This document shows positions 3,718 to 41,542 of a DNA stretch of 64,000 nt, piece by piece. This DNA is from a virus. Below the pieces are notes generated by a model. The model was not told the origin of the DNA. It searched no databases and saw nothing but the letters and a program-made list of their open reading frames with translations. A program made the translations under genes and the position numbers. The stretch spans positions 96,001 through 160,000 of IMG/VR virus record IMGVR_UViG_3300014911_000001, one strand, 5' to 3'. Numbering within the stretch: position 1 is the stretch's first letter; each line of letters opens with the position of its first letter.

Positions 3718-4439
3718 CAACGCAGATAATAAAAAGTTTACGCTCCCAAGTTTTTATACCGCCGTCGTTGCAGGAAATGGAGCATATTGCTACACGTATG
3801 CGACATTTTACACAGTTGAAGCAGGCACGTAGCGCGTTCCAGCGGGCGTGGAGTTTCGCACGCAAGACTGGTTTAGGAGCTGAGTATATTGCAGCAGCGC
3901 GCCCATATATTTTAGGTAAGTATTGGAAAGCTGTAACTGGAATATCAGGTGGTTATAAAGGTAAGGTATGGGCTGAGGAGGTTTTTAAAACGCTGAGTAC
4001 GCACTATGCTAGGTTTACAAGGGCGCCATTAACCACAACTATGGGTGTGCGTCAGGGATTGCGTACACCATTACTTGTATCGGAGTCGATTTTAGGTAAG
4101 CGAGTTATATCATTGAAATCTGTTGCTGGTGCTGCAGCGGCTTCCCGTGCTGCTGCACAGGCTGGTGCTATAGGCGCTGCAAAGGGAGTAACAAATAGGG
4201 TAATGAGGAATCGTTTATTGAAGCGTATTGCCCAGGGAACATTTAAGTTTGCACAGACCAAAACAGGCGCATTTACAGCTGCTGTGCTCGGCGGGCTTAT
4301 AGCATTAACAATTGCTGGTGCAAGTTATGTAAGAAGGAATCCATCAGAGGTTGCTTTGGCCCAGCTTAGGCAGCGTAGGGCCACACGTTATCCAAGGGCG
4401 CCTTCTGGTTTGGTCTTTGCCCTACATGCAACAAGATAA
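3714..4439 (+). CDS. Basic hypothetical protein with a C-terminal transmembrane-like helix
   Basis: AFTAAVLGGLIALTIAGASYV hydrophobic segment; ends SGLVFALHATR. Confidence 0.7.
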   Translation: MTTQIIKSLRSQVFIPPSLQEMEHIATRMRHFTQLKQARSAFQRAWSFARKTGLGAEYIAAARPYILGKYWKAVTGISGGYKGKVWAEEVFKTLSTHYARFTRAPLTTTMGVRQGLRTPLLVSESILGKRVISLKSVAGAAAASRAAAQAGAIGAAKGVTNRVMRNRLLKRIAQGTFKFAQTKTGAFTAAVLGGLIALTIAGASYVRRNPSEVALAQLRQRRATRYPRAPSGLVFALHATR

Positions 4440-4440
4440 T

Positions 4441-6897
4441 ATGGAAGGGAAAAGGTTATCATTAAAAGAGCTAAGTGCTGATGAACTTTTGCGCATACGC
4501 AAATCCGCTTCTTACTTTGTTGAATTATTCCTGCGTGATCCAACCGACCCGCGCCGGCCTCTAAAACTCTACGATTACCAGCGTGAGGTTTTGGATTATC
4601 CCGGTAAGAAGGTTGTTATAAGAGGTGGCCGTGGTGTCAGTAAAACCACGATGATGGCATGGAAGGCATTACACCGTGCCTTCACGATACCAAGGCATGT
4701 TATTATTTATTTAGCACAATCGGAGACGATGCTGCTCAGATTTTTTACTGATTACCTTGACCGCTTCATTACAGATTCACCTCTAAGTAAATCAAAGGTT
4801 GCCTACCGCAAGCAGCCTCAGTATGAGATTGTATTGAGTAATGAGTCAAAAATTTTGGGGTTTGTTGGTAATTCCACGCAGACAATCAGAGGCCCGCGGG
4901 CTGGTACCATTCTTATTGATGAATGTTTTCACGGTATGACGAAGGTCTTAACACAGCGCGGGCTTATTCCCATCAGTCGTGTTAGGGATGGTGATTATGT
5001 TCTTGATGCTGATAGCAAATGGGTGCGTGTTATCCGTGCTGCGATGACGGGTGTTAAAGAAATGTGGGTTATTGAGCTACCTATATCAGATGAAAAATTG
5101 GTTGTTACACCTAATCATCCTGTTTTAACAAAGGATTCAGGATTTCAGCCTCTTAATATAGTTGATGAGATACCGATTAGTTGTCGTTATTATGAGCCTT
5201 TTGAGTATCCTAAGGAAGCGGCGCTGGCGCTTATTTATGCACGATATATAAGCGAGCGTGAATCGCTTGTATTTAATAATGAAGGTGTGCGGCTTATTAT
5301 ATCTGGTTATCCCAGATTCCGCACATTTTATGAGCGTTTCACGGCGGGCAGACATATTAATCCTGTGCTTATTGAGAAGGATTTTATAGACGGAAAAATT
5401 GATCAGCGTCTTTTTGTATATTATCTAGCTGCATTTGTTAATAGATTTCCTAAGATTGTCATCGATTATCTGACGGGGTTGGGTTATAAGGTTATAGCGG
5501 GTTCGCTGGCTAGTGATGATGTACCTAGATATGAAAAGGAGATAGGTTTTCCATTTTTTGAGTCAGGATGGTCAACGATTGTAAAATTAGCTGATAAGTT
5601 GAACCGTGATCCTGTTGAGTTATATAAGGAAATGAATTGGTACAATACAGGCATATTTGTTCCTTATAAGAAGAAATCTACCATTAAGGCGGCGGCTTAT
5701 AACCTTACTACCGAATCGGGGACTTATTGTGTCTTTATTGGTGGATTCCGCATTCCTGTTCACAATTGTGATTATATACCTGAGCGTAAGTTTGTAGAGG
5801 TATTTGGTACAACAATGTCAATGGAGGATGTTGTTATATGGTTATCATCCACACCCAGTCCTAAGAGAGGTTACTTTTGGCGTGCGTGTAATGACGAACG
5901 CATGGGATTCAAGGAGTTTCATTTACCAAGTTGGTTGCATCCGACATGGACGTGGATGAAGGATGCTGAGAGGTTGGGCATACCTATCGAAGAGACAACA
6001 GAGTATCAAACTCGTGTTGAGTTTCCTAACCAAGCTGACTGGTTGCGTGAAATAGCCGCTGAGTTTGTCGATCTTGAGGAGAGTGCTATACCATCAAAAT
6101 ATATAGATGAAGCATTCCAGCATTATGACGGTGAGGTGAGCAGGAAGCGCGGCTTCCGCATCCTTGGTATCGATTGGAATGCGATGGCAGCAGGTGTTGT
6201 TATGGTGTTAGTAGAATACGATAATAAAAATAATGTATTTAGGGTTATCCATTCAGAAACGATTTCTAATGTTGAATATCATCACCAGAAGGCATTGCAA
6301 CGTATTGTTGAGATGGTTAAACAATATCGCATTGATGCTATTGCAGCTGATTGGGGTTATGGAGAAAGTGATATACAGCAGCTTCAGCTTATTGGTAGAG
6401 CTAAAGGGATTCGCGCGCTTACCGACATCATGGCCGTAAAGTTTAATGAAAAGATGAAGATACCGCTTTTTTCGGGTGGTTATGATGAATGCTATGCTAA
6501 GGAATACCTTATGCGGTTGGTCAGGAAGTTATTTGAGATGGGTGCTATCATGCTGCCTCCATCGGAGGATGAAAGGTTGCCTGAAAATTACGCTGATGCT
6601 ACGAATATGTTGGGATACCAGTTGCGTAATTTGCGTGCTAAGGTAACGGGGACCGGTCACCTTACCTATGTTGTTGAACCAGACCATAAATTTGCTGCAT
6701 TTTTGGCTGCTGTCTATGGATTTTATAGGACATTCCAACCGCGTATAGATCCGGTGCAGGGGCTTATTATTTATAATGATTTAGAACGGCAAGAACAGAA
6801 GTTGGATCATGTTCCTAGTATAACATTACAGCCGAAGAAGACACAGCGGTTTGTCCATAGAGTTACAAATAGGTATAAGCCAATAAGAACTGTATGA
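4441..6897 (+). CDS. terL: Terminase large subunit, intein-containing (ATG at 4441 preferred over the TTG at 4351)
   Basis: Q-motif LYDYQRE, Walker A GGRGVSKT, Walker B TILIDE, motif III SSTP, RNase H-like nuclease LGIDWN...DWGYG...DH. Confidence 0.95.
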   Translation: MEGKRLSLKELSADELLRIRKSASYFVELFLRDPTDPRRPLKLYDYQREVLDYPGKKVVIRGGRGVSKTTMMAWKALHRAFTIPRHVIIYLAQSETMLLRFFTDYLDRFITDSPLSKSKVAYRKQPQYEIVLSNESKILGFVGNSTQTIRGPRAGTILIDECFHGMTKVLTQRGLIPISRVRDGDYVLDADSKWVRVIRAAMTGVKEMWVIELPISDEKLVVTPNHPVLTKDSGFQPLNIVDEIPISCRYYEPFEYPKEAALALIYARYISERESLVFNNEGVRLIISGYPRFRTFYERFTAGRHINPVLIEKDFIDGKIDQRLFVYYLAAFVNRFPKIVIDYLTGLGYKVIAGSLASDDVPRYEKEIGFPFFESGWSTIVKLADKLNRDPVELYKEMNWYNTGIFVPYKKKSTIKAAAYNLTTESGTYCVFIGGFRIPVHNCDYIPERKFVEVFGTTMSMEDVVIWLSSTPSPKRGYFWRACNDERMGFKEFHLPSWLHPTWTWMKDAERLGIPIEETTEYQTRVEFPNQADWLREIAAEFVDLEESAIPSKYIDEAFQHYDGEVSRKRGFRILGIDWNAMAAGVVMVLVEYDNKNNVFRVIHSETISNVEYHHQKALQRIVEMVKQYRIDAIAADWGYGESDIQQLQLIGRAKGIRALTDIMAVKFNEKMKIPLFSGGYDECYAKEYLMRLVRKLFEMGAIMLPPSEDERLPENYADATNMLGYQLRNLRAKVTGTGHLTYVVEPDHKFAAFLAAVYGFYRTFQPRIDPVQGLIIYNDLERQEQKLDHVPSITLQPKKTQRFVHRVTNRYKPIRTV
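4924..5766 (+). mobile_element. Intein (281 aa) in TerL, inserted immediately after Walker B DE
   Basis: Starts CFHGMTKV, block B VTPNHPV, block F AYNLTT, ends VHN followed by +1 Cys; splicing restores TILIDE-CDY. Confidence 0.92.
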
Positions 6898-19942: not shown

Positions 19943-22900
19943 ATGCCAAGGGATATAAGAGTAAGATTCAGGCCTACGTTGGTTACCCCTCAGATAAGAG
20001 GGGGGTTTCCCACGCTAGGTGTTTTGATTATCGGTACGGCTACTGATGGCCCGACAAATGAGCCGGTTATTGTAAGGGGTCTTGAAGAAGCACAGGAGAT
20101 TTTTGGCAACTTAGGTGAGGGGACTCTGCTGGAGGGTTATCATGAATTTATCACAGGTGCTTCACGTGGTGCAGACCTGCGTACTGTTGTGGGGCTTATG
20201 AGACTGGATTTCGGTGAGTATGCTAGTGTGGAGCTACCAGAGCCATCGACGGGTACAGGGCTAAGCGAGCCAATGGGTGCAACGGCGCTTACTATTAGAG
20301 CAAGATATAAAGGTGAAATATACAATATGTTTACCATATCATATAAAGCGGTAGCTGGCGGGTTTGCTGTATCTATAGTTGTGCCAGCTGAGAAAGATCC
20401 ATCAGGAAAAAGCCAAGAATATGTGCTTCTTTGTGACCCATCAGGTAGTAATACAGAGCTTATAAATAATCTTACGGAGCTGGCTAATGCTATTAATCAT
20501 CATCCAGTGCTGGCACGTTGGTTGTATGCGGAGGTAAACCTTCTTGATAGTAGATATTCAACGTATATATCCAATGGATTTTATTCGGGAGCTGGTGAGT
20601 CATTTAATGCGTGGGGTGTAGGATATAATGAGACTGATAAGGTTATAGATTTTGTGAGCCGATTTAGTGGCTCGCCTAGTAGTGATGTTTTGGATTCAGA
20701 TGGTGACGATACACTAGGACAGTATCATCCTTATACGATATTTGGGACGACTCCTATCAATGTTAGGGCCACATCACTTGACAACATACAGAATATAAGG
20801 AATTTTGGAAAACTGGCATTGTATGATGTGTCTGTGGATGCTAATACGAAGATTGCTAATTTAGGTGTCTATCCTCTTATACAGACCAAAGCCGGTGCAA
20901 CAAAATTTTATCCCATAAGCGCATATAATGATTATGATGATGATGGTATGTATATTGATGTACCTAATTATCTAAGGAATTGGGACACCCCCGCGACAGC
21001 TAAATATCTTATACCGGGTAGATTTCCTGTATCGGAGGCTGTCTTCTATATGGATGTGATTCTGAACCCCAGCGGGGCTTCAGGGGATGTGAATTATGTC
21101 GAAACTAATATGTTCCTGCCTGTGGATGTTTATGGTGATGTATCACTAGCTAATCTTATTAATGCATCAAGTGTTAGTGATACAAGACGGTTTAGTTATA
21201 AATGGATAATACAGACAGAAGCCGGGACGGTTTATGATAGTGGGGCATCTACTTATACGGGTTGGATGTTGCCTCTTTTCCATTCTCCAATGTCATCTAT
21301 CGGTGGATTAATATTATTCCATCAGAAAGATGGATCGCCGGTTGATGAGTTGGATACGATATTTGGTTCATGGAAATATCTCTATTTAGGTGTGCCTTCA
21401 CAGGTAGGTGGATCGGCGCCTGATTGGTATTCTACGACATCTGATGCAGCTACATTAAAACTTATTGATACAGGGGATAGTGAGAAGGTCCATATAGGTT
21501 TGGGTCCTGCATCAGCATTTTTCACGAAGACTGATGTAACGAGCCATTATGGTAATGAGACATCACCGGATGAGAATTATACTAATGCTATAAATACGGA
21601 TGTAAAAGATTTTGATGGTTCGTATTCAGGTAATGAGTTCAAGCTCTATTATTCAACAGATGGTTCATCTTGGCATGAAATTCCTTTGTATTATGAATAT
21701 GATGGTAAATATTGTTCTGGCCTTACATTAGAGTGGACATTTAATGGTCAAACAGATCTGGCCGCCTTAACTGACCTAAATACATTCAAGATCAAATTCT
21801 TTGATGGGATCACATGGTCCTCGGAGGATGATCCCGAGATCAAAGAAATCCAGTCGAAGTATCCATTCCTTGAGGTTGCGAAGGATACCAGCACTGGTGA
21901 ATATTATCTCGTAATAGCTGCTGGAACAAGAATAAGACTAACGGGTTATACACCGAAGGTTATGTTGAAGTACCTGCCTTCGAGGGCGGCGCTTAATGAC
22001 TGGTATGAGTATACTGTCTATCAGGATAGGATTGAGTTTGGTACACCTTATCCATACACAATTAAATTCAAGGTTCATTATCTCAAGGAGTTTGTTGAGA
22101 ATGTTGATTACATATATGATTCCGCACAGGGTACATTCCAGATGCTTGACTCTGAATTGATACCACCTGATAAGCTAACATTGCTTTATATGGATTACCA
22201 GTTTGAGCCTGAGTGGTTTGATACGTCTCGTATCTATACATTATCAGGTGGTTCATCTGGGTTTGAGAGGGCGCGGCCTCTTGAATACTATGCAAAGTTC
22301 CGTACGGCCTTGCAAGCTATAAGCACAGATGATAGATTTGACATTATAGTGCCAAAGGGTGCTTATATAGACACAGTTGATGAGGTATATGATGCATCTA
22401 TATCTTCGACGACATATGTTAATGTAGGCTATGTGGATCTCTTTGATGAGTTTACGCAGAAACGTGCTGATGATGGCAACCCAACGATTGTTATCCTAGC
22501 AGCGGAACCTTATAAACCTGAGACAGCTATTGTAGGTTATACCCGTGAGGGTATAGCTAATTGGGTAACAAGGATGACCGATACTACATCAATTGATCCC
22601 CGTTCGCCGGCGGGCTTAATTGCCTCTGTGACTGACAATCCAATGATGTGTGTTACTGTTGTACCGATAGCACTTATAGCACCGGGCGGCGCTTATTACA
22701 TATCGGATGGAGCTGCATTCCTTGCGGGTCTTGCTGCAAGATTCCATTATGTGCCCCGCACTGCAGCTAATGAGAGTCTTTACAACCTTGCACTTCCTAA
22801 TGGTGTCAGACCTGCGTTTAGATTATCGGAGTCACAGGTTGATGCATTGCTCAACATGCGTTACATAGTGTTCCACATGGGTCAGGATGGAGCGCCGCGG

Positions 22901-23227
22901 CTTATGAGAGATACAACACTTGCCCAGCCATTTAGTTCATTGAGTGCGCTAACCCACCTAGCTGTGTTGCTGCGTATTAAGCAGGGATTTATAAGAAGGC
23001 TGCGGCCTCATATCGGTAAGATCGTTAACGCTCAGACGAAGATGGAGGTTGATGCAGCTATAACATCCGAGTTGGCACTATGGCAGAAGAGTGGGATTAT
23101 ACAGCAGGCTATAGTTGATATTGATTGGGCAAGTCTTGAAGGTACATTGGGAGTATTACCAGTGCATATTACGATTGTGAGATCACCCATTCTGAAGGGT
23201 GTTGAAATAGATATTGTTGTGCGGTAA
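19943..23227 (+). CDS. Contractile tail sheath protein with a large central insertion
   Basis: N-terminal IIGTATDGPTNEPV...AQEIFG; LSGGSSG; C-terminal sheath domain (FLAGLAA, LSESQVDALL, HIGK, LPVHITIV). Confidence 0.9.
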   Translation: MPRDIRVRFRPTLVTPQIRGGFPTLGVLIIGTATDGPTNEPVIVRGLEEAQEIFGNLGEGTLLEGYHEFITGASRGADLRTVVGLMRLDFGEYASVELPEPSTGTGLSEPMGATALTIRARYKGEIYNMFTISYKAVAGGFAVSIVVPAEKDPSGKSQEYVLLCDPSGSNTELINNLTELANAINHHPVLARWLYAEVNLLDSRYSTYISNGFYSGAGESFNAWGVGYNETDKVIDFVSRFSGSPSSDVLDSDGDDTLGQYHPYTIFGTTPINVRATSLDNIQNIRNFGKLALYDVSVDANTKIANLGVYPLIQTKAGATKFYPISAYNDYDDDGMYIDVPNYLRNWDTPATAKYLIPGRFPVSEAVFYMDVILNPSGASGDVNYVETNMFLPVDVYGDVSLANLINASSVSDTRRFSYKWIIQTEAGTVYDSGASTYTGWMLPLFHSPMSSIGGLILFHQKDGSPVDELDTIFGSWKYLYLGVPSQVGGSAPDWYSTTSDAATLKLIDTGDSEKVHIGLGPASAFFTKTDVTSHYGNETSPDENYTNAINTDVKDFDGSYSGNEFKLYYSTDGSSWHEIPLYYEYDGKYCSGLTLEWTFNGQTDLAALTDLNTFKIKFFDGITWSSEDDPEIKEIQSKYPFLEVAKDTSTGEYYLVIAAGTRIRLTGYTPKVMLKYLPSRAALNDWYEYTVYQDRIEFGTPYPYTIKFKVHYLKEFVENVDYIYDSAQGTFQMLDSELIPPDKLTLLYMDYQFEPEWFDTSRIYTLSGGSSGFERARPLEYYAKFRTALQAISTDDRFDIIVPKGAYIDTVDEVYDASISSTTYVNVGYVDLFDEFTQKRADDGNPTIVILAAEPYKPETAIVGYTREGIANWVTRMTDTTSIDPRSPAGLIASVTDNPMMCVTVVPIALIAPGGAYYISDGAAFLAGLAARFHYVPRTAANESLYNLALPNGVRPAFRLSESQVDALLNMRYIVFHMGQDGAPRLMRDTTLAQPFSSLSALTHLAVLLRIKQGFIRRLRPHIGKIVNAQTKMEVDAAITSELALWQKSGIIQQAIVDIDWASLEGTLGVLPVHITIVRSPILKGVEIDIVVR

Positions 23228-34481: not shown

Positions 34482-37400
34482 TGGCAGTTATAAGGAAAAA
34501 ACATACATATTTGCGTACTTTTACACGCAGGAAGGAGCGGGAGAAGGGCAACCGTTTTGCGAAGTTTGGACTGGGGGTTGCTGCTCTTGTGCCCATTGTT
34601 TATTTGGTCAGGGGGCGCGGCTTCGAAAGGCTACATGATTTTCTTAAGACCTTTGCTGAGGCTTCATATAAGAAAGAGGCGCGGGCTTCAGAAGCATCTC
34701 TATGGGCATATGGGCCTCTTGATAGGATAAAAAAGGCATTTATGGATAATCCATTTTTATCGGTACTGGGTACTGTTACCAAAAAGGAAGCACAAGGAAG
34801 GTCTGTAAGGGAGGTATTGAATAAATTAAAGGATATTGTCGAGCTCTTGCGTGAATATTATTCGGTAGCTGAAATAAGAAAATTATTTAATGAGGATATT
34901 ATTCCTTATGCTGATAAAGCGTCTAAGCTTATTGTTGAGGAGGAAAAGCAATTAGTATATAAGTATCAGTTAATGTTTGAGCGGGCGCTTAAAATTCTCA
35001 CGAGGAAGATTAATGAAAAAGGGTGGCTTCCGCGAGACCCATTTCATTTTCGTCTCCTAAGTAAGTATTTACCACATAGCTACAAATTTGGATTGTTTTA
35101 TGGTACGATGCCGAGTTTTTCGGCGCCTCTATTTGAGATTTCTACAGCTAGTGAGCAGTTTGCACAGATTTTCCAAAGGGAGATAAAGAATCTATCAGAA
35201 AGTGAGGTTTTACTTGGTCAACATGTTGAGCAGGTTATAAAAGATTATGTAAAAAAGCATGTAGTTGTAAATCCTGAGTGGGAGCTTGCTGCTAGTGAGG
35301 TGTTTAAGCATCTATCAGCTGAGGAGCATTTACAGGTCCGAAATCTTGTTACAAGAATTACAGAGCAGGTAGCTAAGTGGTTGCATCGTCATGCCGGTAT
35401 TGATGCAACAGATTTGCCTGATGTGCATGTTGTTATAAAGGCGCAGCGTTATTATGATGTTCCTATGCTAGTTGCTCAGCTGTCGGTTGTTGATCTGCGT
35501 GGGGTCAAAAGGAGTATAGAGATCAAGCTTGGTGTTCCCCAGAAAAGTGGATTGATGGCAGCTATAGGAAATTATCCAACAGCAAATGTCAGATTTGCTC
35601 AAGGTAACAGGGTAAGGTCGATCTTTTCCTTGAAGCTGGAGCGCTTAGGCGAGATGTTTGAGCATGCCTTGAACGATTTATACGAAGGGAAGTCAGAGGA
35701 TTATGTTACCAGACGCATTCATAGAATCATTGGACGATATGATTTATATGGAACTGGGCGTAATGATAAAGCATTCCAGTTGGTGCATTCCATTGTTGAT
35801 AAGGACTTTAAGGATTATGCGGCTTATAATGCTAAAAAGAGATTTTTGAAGCGCGCTGCTGAGTTGGTGCTTGGTGTGAGAAAAGGCAAGTATCGGGTGT
35901 TTATGGATGCTGAGTGGGTTATGGCTGGTATATCGAGTACTGGGACTCAATATGCAGTGACTGAATCCCGCCGGCGCTTGATATGGAGTTTTGCCATACA
36001 AGTTTTTGATGATCTTGGTAATGAGGTTGATAAGTTGGTTGTATTTATAGATCCGAAGACGATAAGCGATGAGTTCTTCATGTCGCAGGTGCGTCGTTTT
36101 GGATTATCAAAGGCAGCTGCTGAGGAGGCATTAAAAGCGGTTAGAGGTCGTGTTGCGATGCCTGCTGGATATGTCAGAGTTGATAGTGAGATGGAAGCCA
36201 GCCGGCTTATATGCAAGAAAATAAAAGACATAATTAATAAATATGGTAAGGATGATCTACTTGTTATGGGTAAGAACTTCTGGAGCTCAGAGGTTGCATT
36301 GTTGGAGCGGGCCTTTAAAGCTGACAGTAATATATTAAATTATATCAAAAGAAAGTTAGTTGATATAGAGGATATATATAGGTTGGTATATGGTGCTAAG
36401 GCTATTAACAGGTCATTAAGTGTTGAGGCTATTCTCGATTATGTAAAGGTATCGGATGAAGGATCGAAGCTATTGGGCCGGCTTCTTAATTATGAACCGA
36501 GGGTTGAGGTCCAAGCGTTTGCTAATTTAGTTAGGTCGCTACATTTTGGTGAGCAAGATAACAGGATTGCATACATCCTATCAAAAATTGCGGAGAGCAT
36601 GGTTAATAATGATCCTGAGTTGCGTGAGAGAGTACTAAGGATTTATGATATTGTAGCGAAGTCACAGGGAGCTGTTTTATCATTTACAACGCAGCAGGAG
36701 TTCATGCAGCGGGCTTACAATTATGTAAAGGAGCAATTGAAATCTGTTGGTGTTGGTTCGCCTAATGCTGCGCGTAAGTGGCGTTTTGAATATCCGTTTA
36801 ATCCGGCTGATTGGGTTCCGCTATTTGTTCCCACCTTGGAGAAACAGAGGTATCAGTTAGGCCGCGGCTTACCTTTATCGGAGGCGTCGAAAAGATTGCT
36901 TGAAACTCTTAAGAAGGAATATGCTAGGCGCGTATTAGGGTTGGGTGAGGCTGATATCAATTATCTAGGACCGGCGCTTATTTCTATGCCATTTAAGAGA
37001 TTCCTAGAACAGCAGATGTTATATAATGTCCGTAGTGTATTTACGATACCTGTCTTCTCAACATTTTTCCCATTTGCTGGCGAAGGACATATGTTTATAC
37101 ACAGGAGACTTACTGAGCTATCGACAGTAGTGCAGGAGGTGATTAGTCAGAAAATTCCGATAAGTAGGTTGGAGAATATGGATGCTCGTATGCAGTTGTG
37201 GGTGAAGCTTTTTGAATCTGCCATGGAGGCTGTTAAGACATCTCCGAAGTTGGGTGAGTTAATTAAAAGCAAATTTAATAATGATATTGTTAAGTTTTTG
37301 AGAGCTGTAGATTTGTCGATTGTTATTGGTAGATATCGTGGATGGATAAAGGATTCTGAGCGGTTGGCTAATGTTTTAGTGCAGTTGTTTCCGGGGTTTC

Positions 37401-40400
37401 CTATCAAGCGTTTTGTTGGTCATGCTATTGGTAGGAATCTAAGAGGTCTTACTATAAAGCAGTATATGGCACTGCGCCGCGGTGTGAGTGCACCAAAAAT
37501 AAATTTGGGGGATATATGGAAGGAGATATTTAGCGACAAAGCAGCTGCTCATCCATTATACGACATGTTGAGTAATGATAATATGTTGAAACTTGGATTG
37601 ATGGATGAGTCTGCTCAGGCAGGTTATGCACAATGTGCATTAATAAGGGAAATCTTTAATAGATTGGTAGAATCGGGGCTTCATCTTACCAACCCAGAGC
37701 AGTACATCAAGTATGGTACTTTCGTAATGACGGACCGGCTTCAGCTTGGTGATAAGGTTGTAAAAATTGGTTATAATGGTAAATTGGTTTTTAATAAAAT
37801 AATTACATCTTATGATCTTACAGGTGTACCTTCATTAGATTTTTCACTTACCTATGAGATAGTTTTGCCAACTCCCTTAAAGTGGGTTACATATTATCAA
37901 AAAGGTATGGGGACAGCACAGCGCTGGTCCTTAAGCCAATTTCCATATTATCTTATAGAACCGGCACGTTTTATGGAGCGTGGTGAATTGGGCATCTTTA
38001 TAGAGACAGAGATGACCCGGCTAAAGGAGGCATTAATTAAAAAATATGGTGTGCGGGAAGCCGCCAATGTTATGTCAAAGATGACAAAGGACCTCAATGA
38101 TTATATGAATAGAGTGGTTAATTACGCTATTAAGGAGCACGGGCTTCCCATCAAACTTACCAGTCCGTTGTTTATATTCAATCCCAAAATGATGGCAATA
38201 GAGGGCAATTATGATTTGTTTAACACATTGACAACAGAACAAAAGGGATTATTGTGGACAGTATTTTTGGAGGGTTTACCTGAGAAGGTGGGAAAGATTG
38301 GTGGATATCCAAGCTTGTTTGATTATCTTGAGGCTAAATTCAAGGAGCATGGTATTGTTGTAACTCCCCAAGAAAGGAGGATATTCAGAAGATATGTACA
38401 GAAACAATATGCGTTGTATAAGAACAAAAAGATAAGCGAAAAGGAATTTTTTGAAACAGTCTTGCTGAAGGACATAGCTGATGAGAGGATACGAAACTGG
38501 TTTAGCAGATTATATTATGGAGATGATAGGGAGCAGCTGGCGCGCTTATTCGATATATATCAGATAAAATTAGGTAAAAGGGTTGTTGAGCTTATTGGTT
38601 TGGGCCGTCATAGCCCCTTTGGGTTGGGTGATACGGCTCTAACTAGTACCTACAAAAGTTTTGTTCGTATACCAATGCAGATGTATTGGGATATCCATCG
38701 CTGGCCTCATTTAGAGGGTATGGCTCAATTTATTGATGCCTTCCAAGCTCAGAATCTACCTATTTATGAGACACTTCTTAAGATGGCTGATATGCTAAAA
38801 ATGAGTCAGTCATCTATTGATGAGTTGGTGAAGGCAGGGGGTATCTATGCTGTACCGGTGCGGCGCTTCTTTGACTTTGTGCGCAAACATATGAATCTTC
38901 TTAGGTCAATAAGGGAGGATATATATGTACCAGAAAAGATATTAGAGGAGGCTCATGGTGATATGGTTCGTGCTGTCCAAATGATGCTTGATCTGGGTGT
39001 ATCGTTAACGGATTTTAAGGAGAATGCTATAAAGTTTGAAGGCGCGCAGGTCCGTGCGCAGGTTGCCAAGGAAGTGCAGGATTTCCTCAGACAGATATTT
39101 GAGGAGGCGCAAGGGAAGCGCGTTGTTATCGATGTAGGCAGGGCAATGTCTGTTTCCTATAAGAACCTTGAGTCGATGATTGGTCAGAATGATGCTATTA
39201 TTAGGGATCTTATAAAATATTTAGAGAGAATGGGTTACAACAAGCTGAAGTATATACCATTGGGGACAAGGGAATTTTGGGATCTGTCATTCCACCAGAT
39301 TGGTAGAGACCAAGTTATTGTTGAGCCTCAGGTTAAGAAGTTGCTGCAATTAATGGCATCGATTGCATCAATTAAGGGTAAGGTGCAAGCAACTGGTGTG
39401 CCATCGGCGCAGGTTAAATTTGAAGAGAGAAATGTATTTTATAAGCAGTTTGTTAATTATCTTGGTTCTATAGCTAGTAGCTTTATAGGCCGGCAATCCT
39501 TATGGGCACGCACTGCTGTAACACATCTTCCTGGTGTTGAGGGTGTTGGACTTCCGTCCTTCTTGCTTTTTAATAAGTCGCGGCTTCTTGACACAGTTGT
39601 ATGGGAGCCATTTACGACCTATGTTGATGCTTCTGTTATTGAGAATCTCAGAGGTATGTTGGAAGCCGCCGGCTTCTCCAAGGAATTTATCGATGCTTTT
39701 TACAAGGGCAGTCCTAATGTAGCATTTTTAGGTATGCCCGGACGTATGCCATTCCACCCCGGTATGGGATTGATAGGATTTATAAAGAGTTTAACCAAGC
39801 AGCAGAAGAAACATGTTTCATCTGTAAGCGATGCCGTTAAAATATATATGGATCCTTTATTGATAACGAAGGTTCTATTAGGTGACTGGGATACAGATAG
39901 ATTGATGGCGTTACTAACAATGACATCTCCGAAGGGTGCTGAGGATATAACAAGGATATGGAAGTGGGTCTATGGTTTATCAGATCAGGATGTTGCATTT
40001 CTTATGTCGTATGGTAAGTTTAGAGCTGGTGACAGGAAGGCTATAGGTGAATTGCAGACATTTTTTACGTCTGTTTTTGAGAAGATGACAAAAGAGCAGA
40101 AGGAGGCATATATACAGAGCAAAGAGTTTGAGGATATGCTCCACAAAAGATTATCAGCCATTGTTGCAAGAATGAAGGAAGGATATTTGAGCTGGTTTGG
40201 TAAGTCTGAGGCAGAAGAGTTAAGCGAGCGGGTCGAGTTTTTAGTGACAGGTGATGTGACGAAGATACCGACAACGGAGGGTAAGGTTATTTATTTACCG
40301 ACTATATTAGCGCAGATGCGTGGTTATACGATGAAGATTGAAAAAATGTGGCCATTTATACAGGAGGCCAAGGAAATTGCGAGGAAGGAAGGAATTCCAT

Positions 40401-41542
40401 TCAAGGAGGCATTAGCTAAGCATATGGCTGACATTTTTGCTAATAGGGAGCTTAGGAATGTACTGGGTACATCGATGGCTGGTAAAGCTGATGTGATAAG
40501 AACAGGGTATGCATTAGCATTGCAGCATATATATAAATTAAGAGCTGAAGGGCTTTCATATCAGGATATAAGTAAGATCATGGGATTAAGCATTCCAGAA
40601 GCATTTGGTCAAGTATTTGATAAATGGATTGCGGCGGGTTCTGAAAGACAGAAGATGATTCTTACATTTGAAAGGGAAATACTCGATAAGGTATTAAAGA
40701 TGAAGCGTGGTGGTTCTCCAGAGGCGATGGCTGAAGCAATAAATAATCTTGCTAATGAGTTGCTGGAGTATAGTAAGGTTTCATCATCTGTTGCGAAGAA
40801 AGGACATGAGTTAATAGATAAATTTGTTGCAGAAATTGATTGGGAGAAGATGGGATTGAAGCCGCGTGATGCTTTATACATGATGGGGTGGTTATTAAGA
40901 AACACGCAATGGACTATCCGTAATTCCAGTTATCTTGTTACGAGACAATCGATAAATAGAGGTCTTATTGAAGCATATGCGATGTTTGCATCCCGTTTGC
41001 TGAGTCAACCGACGGGTCCTACGGTAAGCCCGACATTGTTAGATGCATTGTCGGGTGAGGTATTAAGGGGCATGGCAAGGGAGCCGAAGCCATTGAATGA
41101 ATTACTTGGCGAGCAAACAGCAAATATGAGGTTTAGGGAGGCATTGGCGGGCTTCCTTACAAAAACATTTGAGAATTTATCTAAATCAAGAAAACATAGA
41201 TTGCTATTAGCAGGTGCATTGGCTGGGATAGCGGGATATATATTAAGCGGGCCGAAATTAAGAGGAGATATATTTTCATTTGGTATCGATATAGGCACAG
41301 TGCATGGATTGGAGCCGAGCTTCTTTGATGGTAGATGGACATACCCTGAGTTGCCCCGAGGGGAGGATATAAGGGGTTTGGAGAATCCATATCATAAAAG
41401 GAAAATTTATATTCTACGTAATATAAGGCGCAGGAACCCTGCATTATTTAATGAGTTAAGGAGGCGCGGTATAATTCAAGAGTGGGAAATGTCGGCGCCT
41501 TATGATTACCCACGCAGAGAAAGGAAGGTGATCTATGTATGA
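34481..41542 (+). CDS. Putative virion single-chain two-barrel RNA polymerase fused to a DEDDh-like exonuclease
   Basis: Beta'-like GRMPFH...IYMDPLL...GDWDTD; beta-like LKWVTYYQKG and GEGHMFI; N-terminal FMDAE...GKNFWSSE...HFGEQD. Confidence 0.7.
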   Translation: MAVIRKKHTYLRTFTRRKEREKGNRFAKFGLGVAALVPIVYLVRGRGFERLHDFLKTFAEASYKKEARASEASLWAYGPLDRIKKAFMDNPFLSVLGTVTKKEAQGRSVREVLNKLKDIVELLREYYSVAEIRKLFNEDIIPYADKASKLIVEEEKQLVYKYQLMFERALKILTRKINEKGWLPRDPFHFRLLSKYLPHSYKFGLFYGTMPSFSAPLFEISTASEQFAQIFQREIKNLSESEVLLGQHVEQVIKDYVKKHVVVNPEWELAASEVFKHLSAEEHLQVRNLVTRITEQVAKWLHRHAGIDATDLPDVHVVIKAQRYYDVPMLVAQLSVVDLRGVKRSIEIKLGVPQKSGLMAAIGNYPTANVRFAQGNRVRSIFSLKLERLGEMFEHALNDLYEGKSEDYVTRRIHRIIGRYDLYGTGRNDKAFQLVHSIVDKDFKDYAAYNAKKRFLKRAAELVLGVRKGKYRVFMDAEWVMAGISSTGTQYAVTESRRRLIWSFAIQVFDDLGNEVDKLVVFIDPKTISDEFFMSQVRRFGLSKAAAEEALKAVRGRVAMPAGYVRVDSEMEASRLICKKIKDIINKYGKDDLLVMGKNFWSSEVALLERAFKADSNILNYIKRKLVDIEDIYRLVYGAKAINRSLSVEAILDYVKVSDEGSKLLGRLLNYEPRVEVQAFANLVRSLHFGEQDNRIAYILSKIAESMVNNDPELRERVLRIYDIVAKSQGAVLSFTTQQEFMQRAYNYVKEQLKSVGVGSPNAARKWRFEYPFNPADWVPLFVPTLEKQRYQLGRGLPLSEASKRLLETLKKEYARRVLGLGEADINYLGPALISMPFKRFLEQQMLYNVRSVFTIPVFSTFFPFAGEGHMFIHRRLTELSTVVQEVISQKIPISRLENMDARMQLWVKLFESAMEAVKTSPKLGELIKSKFNNDIVKFLRAVDLSIVIGRYRGWIKDSERLANVLVQLFPGFPIKRFVGHAIGRNLRGLTIKQYMALRRGVSAPKINLGDIWKEIFSDKAAAHPLYDMLSNDNMLKLGLMDESAQAGYAQCALIREIFNRLVESGLHLTNPEQYIKYGTFVMTDRLQLGDKVVKIGYNGKLVFNKIITSYDLTGVPSLDFSLTYEIVLPTPLKWVTYYQKGMGTAQRWSLSQFPYYLIEPARFMERGELGIFIETEMTRLKEALIKKYGVREAANVMSKMTKDLNDYMNRVVNYAIKEHGLPIKLTSPLFIFNPKMMAIEGNYDLFNTLTTEQKGLLWTVFLEGLPEKVGKIGGYPSLFDYLEAKFKEHGIVVTPQERRIFRRYVQKQYALYKNKKISEKEFFETVLLKDIADERIRNWFSRLYYGDDREQLARLFDIYQIKLGKRVVELIGLGRHSPFGLGDTALTSTYKSFVRIPMQMYWDIHRWPHLEGMAQFIDAFQAQNLPIYETLLKMADMLKMSQSSIDELVKAGGIYAVPVRRFFDFVRKHMNLLRSIREDIYVPEKILEEAHGDMVRAVQMMLDLGVSLTDFKENAIKFEGAQVRAQVAKEVQDFLRQIFEEAQGKRVVIDVGRAMSVSYKNLESMIGQNDAIIRDLIKYLERMGYNKLKYIPLGTREFWDLSFHQIGRDQVIVEPQVKKLLQLMASIASIKGKVQATGVPSAQVKFEERNVFYKQFVNYLGSIASSFIGRQSLWARTAVTHLPGVEGVGLPSFLLFNKSRLLDTVVWEPFTTYVDASVIENLRGMLEAAGFSKEFIDAFYKGSPNVAFLGMPGRMPFHPGMGLIGFIKSLTKQQKKHVSSVSDAVKIYMDPLLITKVLLGDWDTDRLMALLTMTSPKGAEDITRIWKWVYGLSDQDVAFLMSYGKFRAGDRKAIGELQTFFTSVFEKMTKEQKEAYIQSKEFEDMLHKRLSAIVARMKEGYLSWFGKSEAEELSERVEFLVTGDVTKIPTTEGKVIYLPTILAQMRGYTMKIEKMWPFIQEAKEIARKEGIPFKEALAKHMADIFANRELRNVLGTSMAGKADVIRTGYALALQHIYKLRAEGLSYQDISKIMGLSIPEAFGQVFDKWIAAGSERQKMILTFEREILDKVLKMKRGGSPEAMAEAINNLANELLEYSKVSSSVAKKGHELIDKFVAEIDWEKMGLKPRDALYMMGWLLRNTQWTIRNSSYLVTRQSINRGLIEAYAMFASRLLSQPTGPTVSPTLLDALSGEVLRGMAREPKPLNELLGEQTANMRFREALAGFLTKTFENLSKSRKHRLLLAGALAGIAGYILSGPKLRGDIFSFGIDIGTVHGLEPSFFDGRWTYPELPRGEDIRGLENPYHKRKIYILRNIRRRNPALFNELRRRGIIQEWEMSAPYDYPRRERKVIYV

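Follow-up and report, generated by a model that had tools for sequence, protein, structure and literature searches.

The closest published system for the protein described here is gp96 of Thermus phage P23-45, a virion two-barrel RNA polymerase fused to a tail tape measure protein (Chaban et al. 2024, PMC10770324), and the paper describing it contains zero mentions of exonuclease or nuclease. The protein in question, P0001 (2,353 amino acids, aa), occupies the tape-measure slot within the tail module of an uncultured phage (IMG/VR record IMGVR_UViG_3300014911_000001; 175,796 bp), and its aa 466–712 resemble an exonuclease of the DnaQ/RNase T type. The window, i.e. the whole stretch of DNA analysed, comprises bases 96001–160000 of this record (64,000 nt). 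Like gp96, P0001 is a giant tail-slot protein with a lone DxDxD motif from a phage of thermophiles; P23-45 also has a second, non-virion polymerase (PMC10770324), and the phage analysed here a second polymerase-like ORF. P23-45 differs in being a siphovirus, and gp96 in having the motif DFDGD and the polymerase at the N-terminus; no sequence similarity between gp96 and P0001 was found. A further reference is gp146 of Bacillus phage 0305phi8-36, which lies in the same slot of the same order (sheath, tube, two chaperones, gp145, slot protein, hub), was named ‘hypothetical tape measure protein’ from tail length only (PMC2147016) and, according to its annotation, was detected in virions by mass spectrometry. 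Full-text literature searches found no description of an exonuclease domain on a tape measure protein or a virion RNA polymerase.

Aa 466–712 of P0001 are probably a genuine DnaQ-like domain, the counterpart of exonuclease domains carried by same-slot proteins of related phages. The kind of enzyme is known, but this variant has diverged greatly and belongs to an undescribed fusion. All four motif strings picked out in the sequence-only reading are found at the residues given there: an ExoI-like D-x-E pair (D476/E478), an ExoII-like acid (E604), an equivalent of the ‘iDt’ motif of strand 5 (D628) and an ExoIII-like H-x4-D (H688/D693) (Table 1). As judged from the sequence, the five canonical catalytic positions all hold chemically competent residues. 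The same reading noted Glu in ExoII where Asp is usual, and this is a known variant: motif II of nidovirus ExoN alternates between Glu and Asp (termed DEDDh/DEEDh; PMC6693484). A generic pattern of ExoI, ExoII and ExoIII in this order and with canonical distances has a single match in P0001 and none in 5,000 composition-preserving shuffles, and a rough estimate from per-motif counts gives ~4e-4 chance occurrences per protein of this size. As the pattern was composed after the hit was seen, and chance cases are expected over a very large scan, the motifs alone are not decisive.

In MAFFT alignments, D476/E478 are paired with D12/E14 of E. coli epsilon, with the DxE of RNase T, Orn and ExoX, and with DTE, DIE and DLE of the phages KLEB27-3, WH1 and MTATph1, respectively. 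The KLVD...SL...Y block of P0001, KLVDIEDIYRLVYG...RSLSVEAILDY, is paired with KVTDSLAVARKMFPG..NSLDALCARY of epsilon (aa 129–155), while LHFGEQD is aligned with AHFGLSD (KLEB27-3), THMALQD (WH1) and AHEALTD (MTATph1) as ExoIII. The T-T-G and H-N features are absent from the P0001 domain.

Comparison with a 90%-identical metagenomic variant (L007) identified 64 synonymous and five non-synonymous changes in aa 466–712, giving a ratio of non-synonymous to synonymous substitution rates (dN/dS) of 0.015; both flanks have higher values in the same comparison (0.042 and 0.059). The stretch is genuine, strongly constrained coding sequence. The low ratio indicates that the domain matters; catalysis is not thereby implied.

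Structure models were generated with AlphaFold2 without alignment depth or templates. A construct covering aa 451–748 gave a predicted local distance difference test score (pLDDT) of 52, and aa 466–712 gave a better model (pLDDT 60.5; predicted template modelling score 0.58). In the latter, strand 1 with the D-x-E is followed by a hairpin of strands 2 and 3, two helices, a short strand and a long helix; the second half has a strand (LLVMGK), a helix starting at about E604, a second helix, a short LVDI strand, further helices and a last helix after D693. The predicted order of elements is that of DnaQ (β1-β2-β3-α-β4-α-β5-α), with insertions. Foldseek comparison of this model with the PDB placed ERI2 (7n8v) first (E 3.9e-4, probability 1.00), and the top 50 matches were mostly DnaQ-like exonucleases (3'hExo, 1w0h; ExoI; RNase T; the DinG exonuclease domain; exonuclease domains of PolB-family polymerases), plus MAEL. 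BFVD yielded 12 matches at E ≤ 1e-3, the best being a viral exoribonuclease (E 2.4e-5), with DEDDh, Orn and DnaQ-like entries lower. In a VIA search, which is independent of Foldseek, every match among those listed that aligned at least 125 residues over the full span of the model was a DnaQ-like exonuclease (ERI2, DexA, ExoI, Pol alpha exonuclease, QIP, REXO2, Cap18, PolC exonuclease and epsilon); with the longer construct, the list was dominated by helical-bundle matches to the C-terminal flank. The structure prediction proposed in the sequence-only reading thus returned a DnaQ-like order of elements and DnaQ-like neighbours in all three comparisons, from a model of low confidence (pLDDT 60.5), and a DnaQ fold class for aa 466–712 is indicated, not proven.

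Language-model neighbours point the same way. In the ESM Atlas, 26 of the 30 named clusters nearest to the 247-aa domain carry PF00929, PF16473 (Rv2179c/RNase AS) or DEDDh_C. These clusters are mostly viral, with scores of 0.90–0.92 and shared-feature counts of 140–155; such counts are below those of close family members, so that this result is a lead rather than proof. Compared with PF00929 DEDDh exonucleases, the P0001 domain has the same order of ExoI DxE, putative ExoII acid, ‘iDt’ strand and H-x4-D and the same predicted topology. It differs in having no profile match, Glu for Asp in ExoII, and extra helices between strands 3 and 4 and before ExoIII, and in being embedded in a 2,353-aa tail-module protein.

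Gene order connects P0001 to cultured phages. The 1,943-aa protein encoded immediately upstream matches gp145 of 0305phi8-36 in colinear blastp segments (E 2.5e-16 to 2e-9), and tblastn with this neighbour retrieved six phage records, corresponding to 0305phi8-36 (two records), MTATph1, Edson, WH1 and KLEB27-3. The order gp145-like protein, giant slot protein, hub-like protein is common to all these relatives, and the sheath, tube and two chaperones annotated upstream in 0305phi8-36 and WH1 agree with the gene order of the window. The gp145 homology ties the tail module of this vent phage to the Bacillus jumbo-myophage lineage and to MTATph1, a phage of Moorella thermoacetica, the genome of which (176.6 kb) is nearly the same size as the record analysed here. 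CDS0027 of MTATph1 matches PF00929 (E 5.4e-5; 24.2 bits, cut-off 24), and aa 67–164 of KLEB27-3 gp34 match aa 838–938 of the MTATph1 protein (E 4.9e-8).

MTATph1 CDS0027, KLEB27-3 gp34, WH1 gp095 and Edson 0920 share with P0001 the slot after the gp145 homolog, the DEDDh motifs and a G-x-N-x4-acid form of ExoII. Besides the ExoI and ExoIII motifs given above, ExoII and ‘iDt’ read AGYNVHNFD and QVDAF in KLEB27-3, GGQNINTYD and SFDTL in WH1, and AGQNVVGFD and VIDLV in MTATph1. In these relatives the ExoII acid lies five residues past the Asn (four in epsilon), which is the spacing of G-K-N-F-W-S-S-E in P0001, and KLEB27-3 also shares HFG..D in ExoIII with P0001. Distances between successive motifs are 128/24/60 residues in P0001 and 124/22/37 in MTATph1. 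The position of the exonuclease within these giant proteins differs, at aa ~90–365 in the Bacillus phages KLEB27-3, WH1 and Edson and ~865–1060 in MTATph1, compared to 466–712 in P0001. In MTATph1, CDS0027 (1,309 aa) is followed by an annotated transposase and three small open reading frames (ORFs) before the hub gene (OR602862, 30512–37868; L011:8513–15869), raising the possibility that a giant gene has been split here.

In 0305phi8-36 the slot protein retains a decayed copy of the exonuclease (gp146 aa ~1440–1730; L010:25941–26813), which has kept the ExoII-like AGKDVDGFD but neither the ExoI DxE nor the ExoIII His. This remnant is homologous to aa 1002–1173 of the MTATph1 protein (E 3.9e-10); a six-frame PF00929 scan of 0305phi8-36 gave no candidate, and gp146 does not contain any DxDxD.

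Several results weigh against an exonuclease in P0001. The profile search proposed for aa 465–700 in the sequence-only reading came back negative, with no DEDDh match from Pfam, hhalign or the hidden Markov models (HMMs) of the relatives: PF00929 is absent from the whole of P0001 and from aa 434–740 at E ≤ 1, a six-frame PF00929 scan of the whole phage gave no candidate at E ≤ 10 (the same scan was positive in 13/14 control genomes), and hhalign against E. coli DnaQ, RNase T, Orn and ExoX returned a probability of 0.1. P0001 had no blastp match to gp146, KLEB27-3 gp34, WH1 gp095, Edson 0920 or MTATph1 CDS0027, it was missed both by an HMM of the relatives’ exonuclease domains and by one of full-length KLEB27-3, WH1 and Edson proteins, and hhalign against the relatives’ exonuclease domains gave a probability of 0.2. 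The register of ExoII is also uncertain: MAFFT pairs the ExoII of the family with D568 or with the region around E649, not with E604, which is a Glu rather than Asp in the first turn of the helix after the predicted strand LLVMGK. D568 was rejected as the ExoII acid, being Gly in the natural variant L007, and E649, suggested by alignment with the relatives, was judged less likely, leaving just 39 residues before H688. E604 is preferred because D568 varies, E649 is too near H688 and the E604 register gives the spacing of MTATph1.

Other sequence searches were similarly unproductive: Pfam, PHROGs and NCBIfam gave no relevant match on the whole of P0001 or on the domain, and PDB sequence searches returned histone and lectin noise only. 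A four-protein alignment of the E. coli DEDDh enzymes recovers D12, E14, D103, H162 and D167 as invariant, and a homolog search with the corresponding profile found close RNase T and DnaQ relatives only. The assignment to the DnaQ/RNase T type, of which the sequence-only reading took the signature as established, is backed by predicted fold, language-model neighbours and syntenic architecture, and by no sequence-profile statistic. The domain is an example fully missed by standard annotation and visible only via motifs, predicted fold and synteny. That no exonuclease fold exists here, with chance motifs lying in some other α/β domain of a fast-evolving tail protein and the models and neighbour lists echoing those motifs, is improbable: fold prediction, ESM features and the syntenic relatives, among which a DEDDh domain reaches Pfam level, are three different kinds of evidence that indicate the same family, the spacings are close to those of MTATph1 and the motif pattern never arose in the shuffled sequences.

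Somewhat less improbable, but still unlikely, is a DnaQ-like fold that is catalytically dead or altered and is maintained in the slot protein for nucleic-acid binding or a structural role. The uncertain register and Glu of ExoII, the missing T-T-G and H-N features and the degenerate copy in 0305phi8-36 would all fit such a loss, and inactive folds (Pol alpha, the C-terminal half of Pol epsilon, Exuperantia, Maelstrom) are among the structural matches. However, all five canonical positions are occupied by competent residues, active ExoN enzymes use Glu in motif II (PMC6693484) and the N+5 spacing of ExoII is found in relatives whose other motifs are canonical; the dN/dS value also counts against this alternative, although it shows importance, not catalysis. 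The chances that the P0001 domain is catalytically active appear evenly balanced.

The sequence-only reading had also taken P0001 to be a putative RNA polymerase, to which the exonuclease would be fused. A single DxDxD (GDWDTD, aa 1801–1806) is present, and GRMPFHPGMG...GDWDTD fits the R-x-P...(~40 aa)...DxDxD of β'-type barrels as a motif match only; there is no Pfam match for a polymerase barrel in P0001. The β'-like motif is a good one and is the only basis for this assignment. In KLEB27-3, WH1 and Edson, which share the downstream R-x-P...DxDxD barrel motif with P0001, NRYPTIN...ADYDGD or ADHDGD lies ~1,600 residues downstream of the exonuclease, and the barrel region of KLEB27-3 and WH1 matches PF00623 weakly (E 0.015 and 0.09). 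The fusion, described in that reading as unusual, is thus not unique, the same order being present in KLEB27-3 gp34, WH1 gp095 and Edson 0920; no publication describing it was found. A second polymerase-like ORF (850 aa; DADGD) is present outside the window on the minus strand (genome positions 68461–71010), with no detectable similarity to P0001, and together the two recall the virion/non-virion polymerase pair of P23-45.

The reading favoured on balance, and considered fairly probable as a whole, is that aa ~466–712 are a genuine, extremely diverged DnaQ/RNase T-type exonuclease domain, the counterpart of the domain in the same-slot relatives, and act as a virion-delivered, independent end-trimming module. 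P0001 would be packaged in the virion and exit via the tail on infection, as suggested by its tape-measure slot and the proteomics annotation of 0305phi8-36. D476, E478, E604 and D693 may serve as metal ligands in two-metal catalysis, with H688 as general base, and nucleotides would be removed from free 3' ends; as infection begins, such ends could be those of the incoming genome, of host nucleic acid or of RNA. The exonuclease would act as its own module, with no obligatory part in the polymerase active site. Independent trimming is favoured over obligatory proofreading of transcripts because MTATph1 encodes the exonuclease with no accompanying polymerase signature, and because a long stretch of differing length separates exonuclease from barrel.

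As a special case within this favoured reading, the exonuclease could be functionally linked to the polymerase core within its own chain, trimming 3' ends of nascent or backtracked RNA as a proofreader or restart factor, a role regarded as doubtful and less probable than either alternative weighed above. KLEB27-3, WH1, Edson and P0001 all have the exonuclease ahead of the DxDxD, although P0001 has no sequence similarity to the other three, and polymerase-associated DEDDh/DEEDh proofreaders are known in nidoviruses (PMC6693484). Nidovirus nsp14 ExoN works with the viral polymerase and shares the Glu/Asp alternation in motif II, but it is an RNA-virus enzyme that forms a subunit of its own, contains zinc fingers and has nsp10 as cofactor; the comparison is one of analogy, and no relationship is claimed (PMC6693484). 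PolD, a two-barrel polymerase with an Mre11-like exonuclease subunit as partner, likewise offers a functional analogy only. Against coupling, no DxDxD was found in the forward frames of 24 kb of the MTATph1 tail module that encodes its exonuclease, which speaks mildly against an obligatory link to a polymerase, and exonuclease and catalytic barrel are 1,100–1,600 residues apart. Multisubunit-type RNA polymerases, moreover, normally cleave RNA within their own active site. Equally doubtful is the broader proposal that the exonuclease is the built-in 3'-end editor of an injected RNA polymerase of the cellular, two-barrel type, and that this module is conserved throughout a deep and so far unrecognised tail-slot family; if true, this would be the first case of a covalent link between such a polymerase and a proofreading or restart exonuclease, and would give DNA phages a counterpart of nidovirus ExoN or PolD DP1.

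If the exonuclease domain is real, a widespread lineage of large phages with contractile tails, spanning Bacillus jumbo phages to thermophile and vent phages, encodes enzymes in its ‘tape measure’ slot and not a ruler alone. The slot protein would carry a 3'-5' exonuclease, often with an RNA-polymerase-like core in addition, and would presumably enter the cell before the DNA does. The cultured relatives WH1, KLEB27-3 and Edson make this idea testable.

Table 1 Features of P0001 and its neighbours, with positions in the window.
Feature	Residues	Position	Strand	Basis or remark
Upstream neighbour, homolog of 0305phi8-36 gp145 (virion protein)	1,943 aa	28650..34481	+	blastp, tblastn; synteny anchor
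Host gene of P0001, giant ORF	2,353 aa	34481..41542	+	open reading frame; tape-measure slot of tail module
N-terminal hydrophobic, transmembrane-like segment	aa 25–44	34553..34612	+	Kyte-Doolittle 19-residue window maximum 1.66
DnaQ/RNase T-like (DEDDh, here DEEDh) exonuclease-like domain	aa 466–712	35876..36616	+	
ExoI-like KYRVFMDAE (D476/E478)	aa 470–478	35888..35914	+	inside predicted strand 1 (aa 471–482)
ExoII-like VMGKNFWSSE (E604)	aa 595–604	36263..36292	+	predicted strand LLVMGK, then helix
KLVDIED, equivalent of ‘iDt’ strand-5 motif (D628)	aa 625–631	36353..36373	+	short predicted strand (aa 627–628)
ExoIII-like LHFGEQD (H688/D693)	aa 687–693	36539..36559	+	directly before predicted helix (aa 694–709)
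β'-like barrel signature GRMPFHPGMG..(~35 aa)..LLGDWDTD	aa 1754–1806	39743..39898	+	sequence motif
Downstream neighbour, hub-like, slot of 0305phi8-36 gp147	1,798 aa	41675..47071	+	weak M23 match plus gene order

All long ORFs of the window are on the plus strand, and the terminase, portal and tail sheath were recognised by PHROG matches. P0001 is flanked by the gp145 homolog upstream and by the hub-like protein downstream, the latter matching the M23 peptidase family (PF01551) at E 4.5e-5, below the cut-off. In addition to the N-terminal hydrophobic segment (Table 1), a second, weaker hydrophobic stretch was read from the sequence near aa 2241–2257 (~41201–41251); hydrophobic segments at both ends are as expected for an ejected protein that meets a membrane.

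Sequence relatives of P0001 are close copies only (P0002, L002 and L007; 94–100% identical). Neither a search of 5.8 billion clustered proteins nor a complete HMMER run against 1.84 billion representatives identified distant homologs; P0002 (94–98% identical) was the sole relative, and P0003–P0007 were rejected as repeat-protein artefacts. Scans of viral and metagenome contigs gave nothing beyond 98–100% identical copies, and tblastn of either the whole of P0001 or aa 1600–1950 against GenBank phages gave no match.

Two other ORFs of the window have unusual architectures. Sheath profiles cover only the first ~135 residues of the 1,094-aa tail-sheath ORF (19943–23227), the remainder being unexplained. 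The large terminase subunit (4351–6897; 848 aa) has profile matches in two separated blocks (aa 36–217 and 553–679), and the ~330 unexplained residues between them are possibly an intein or other insertion.

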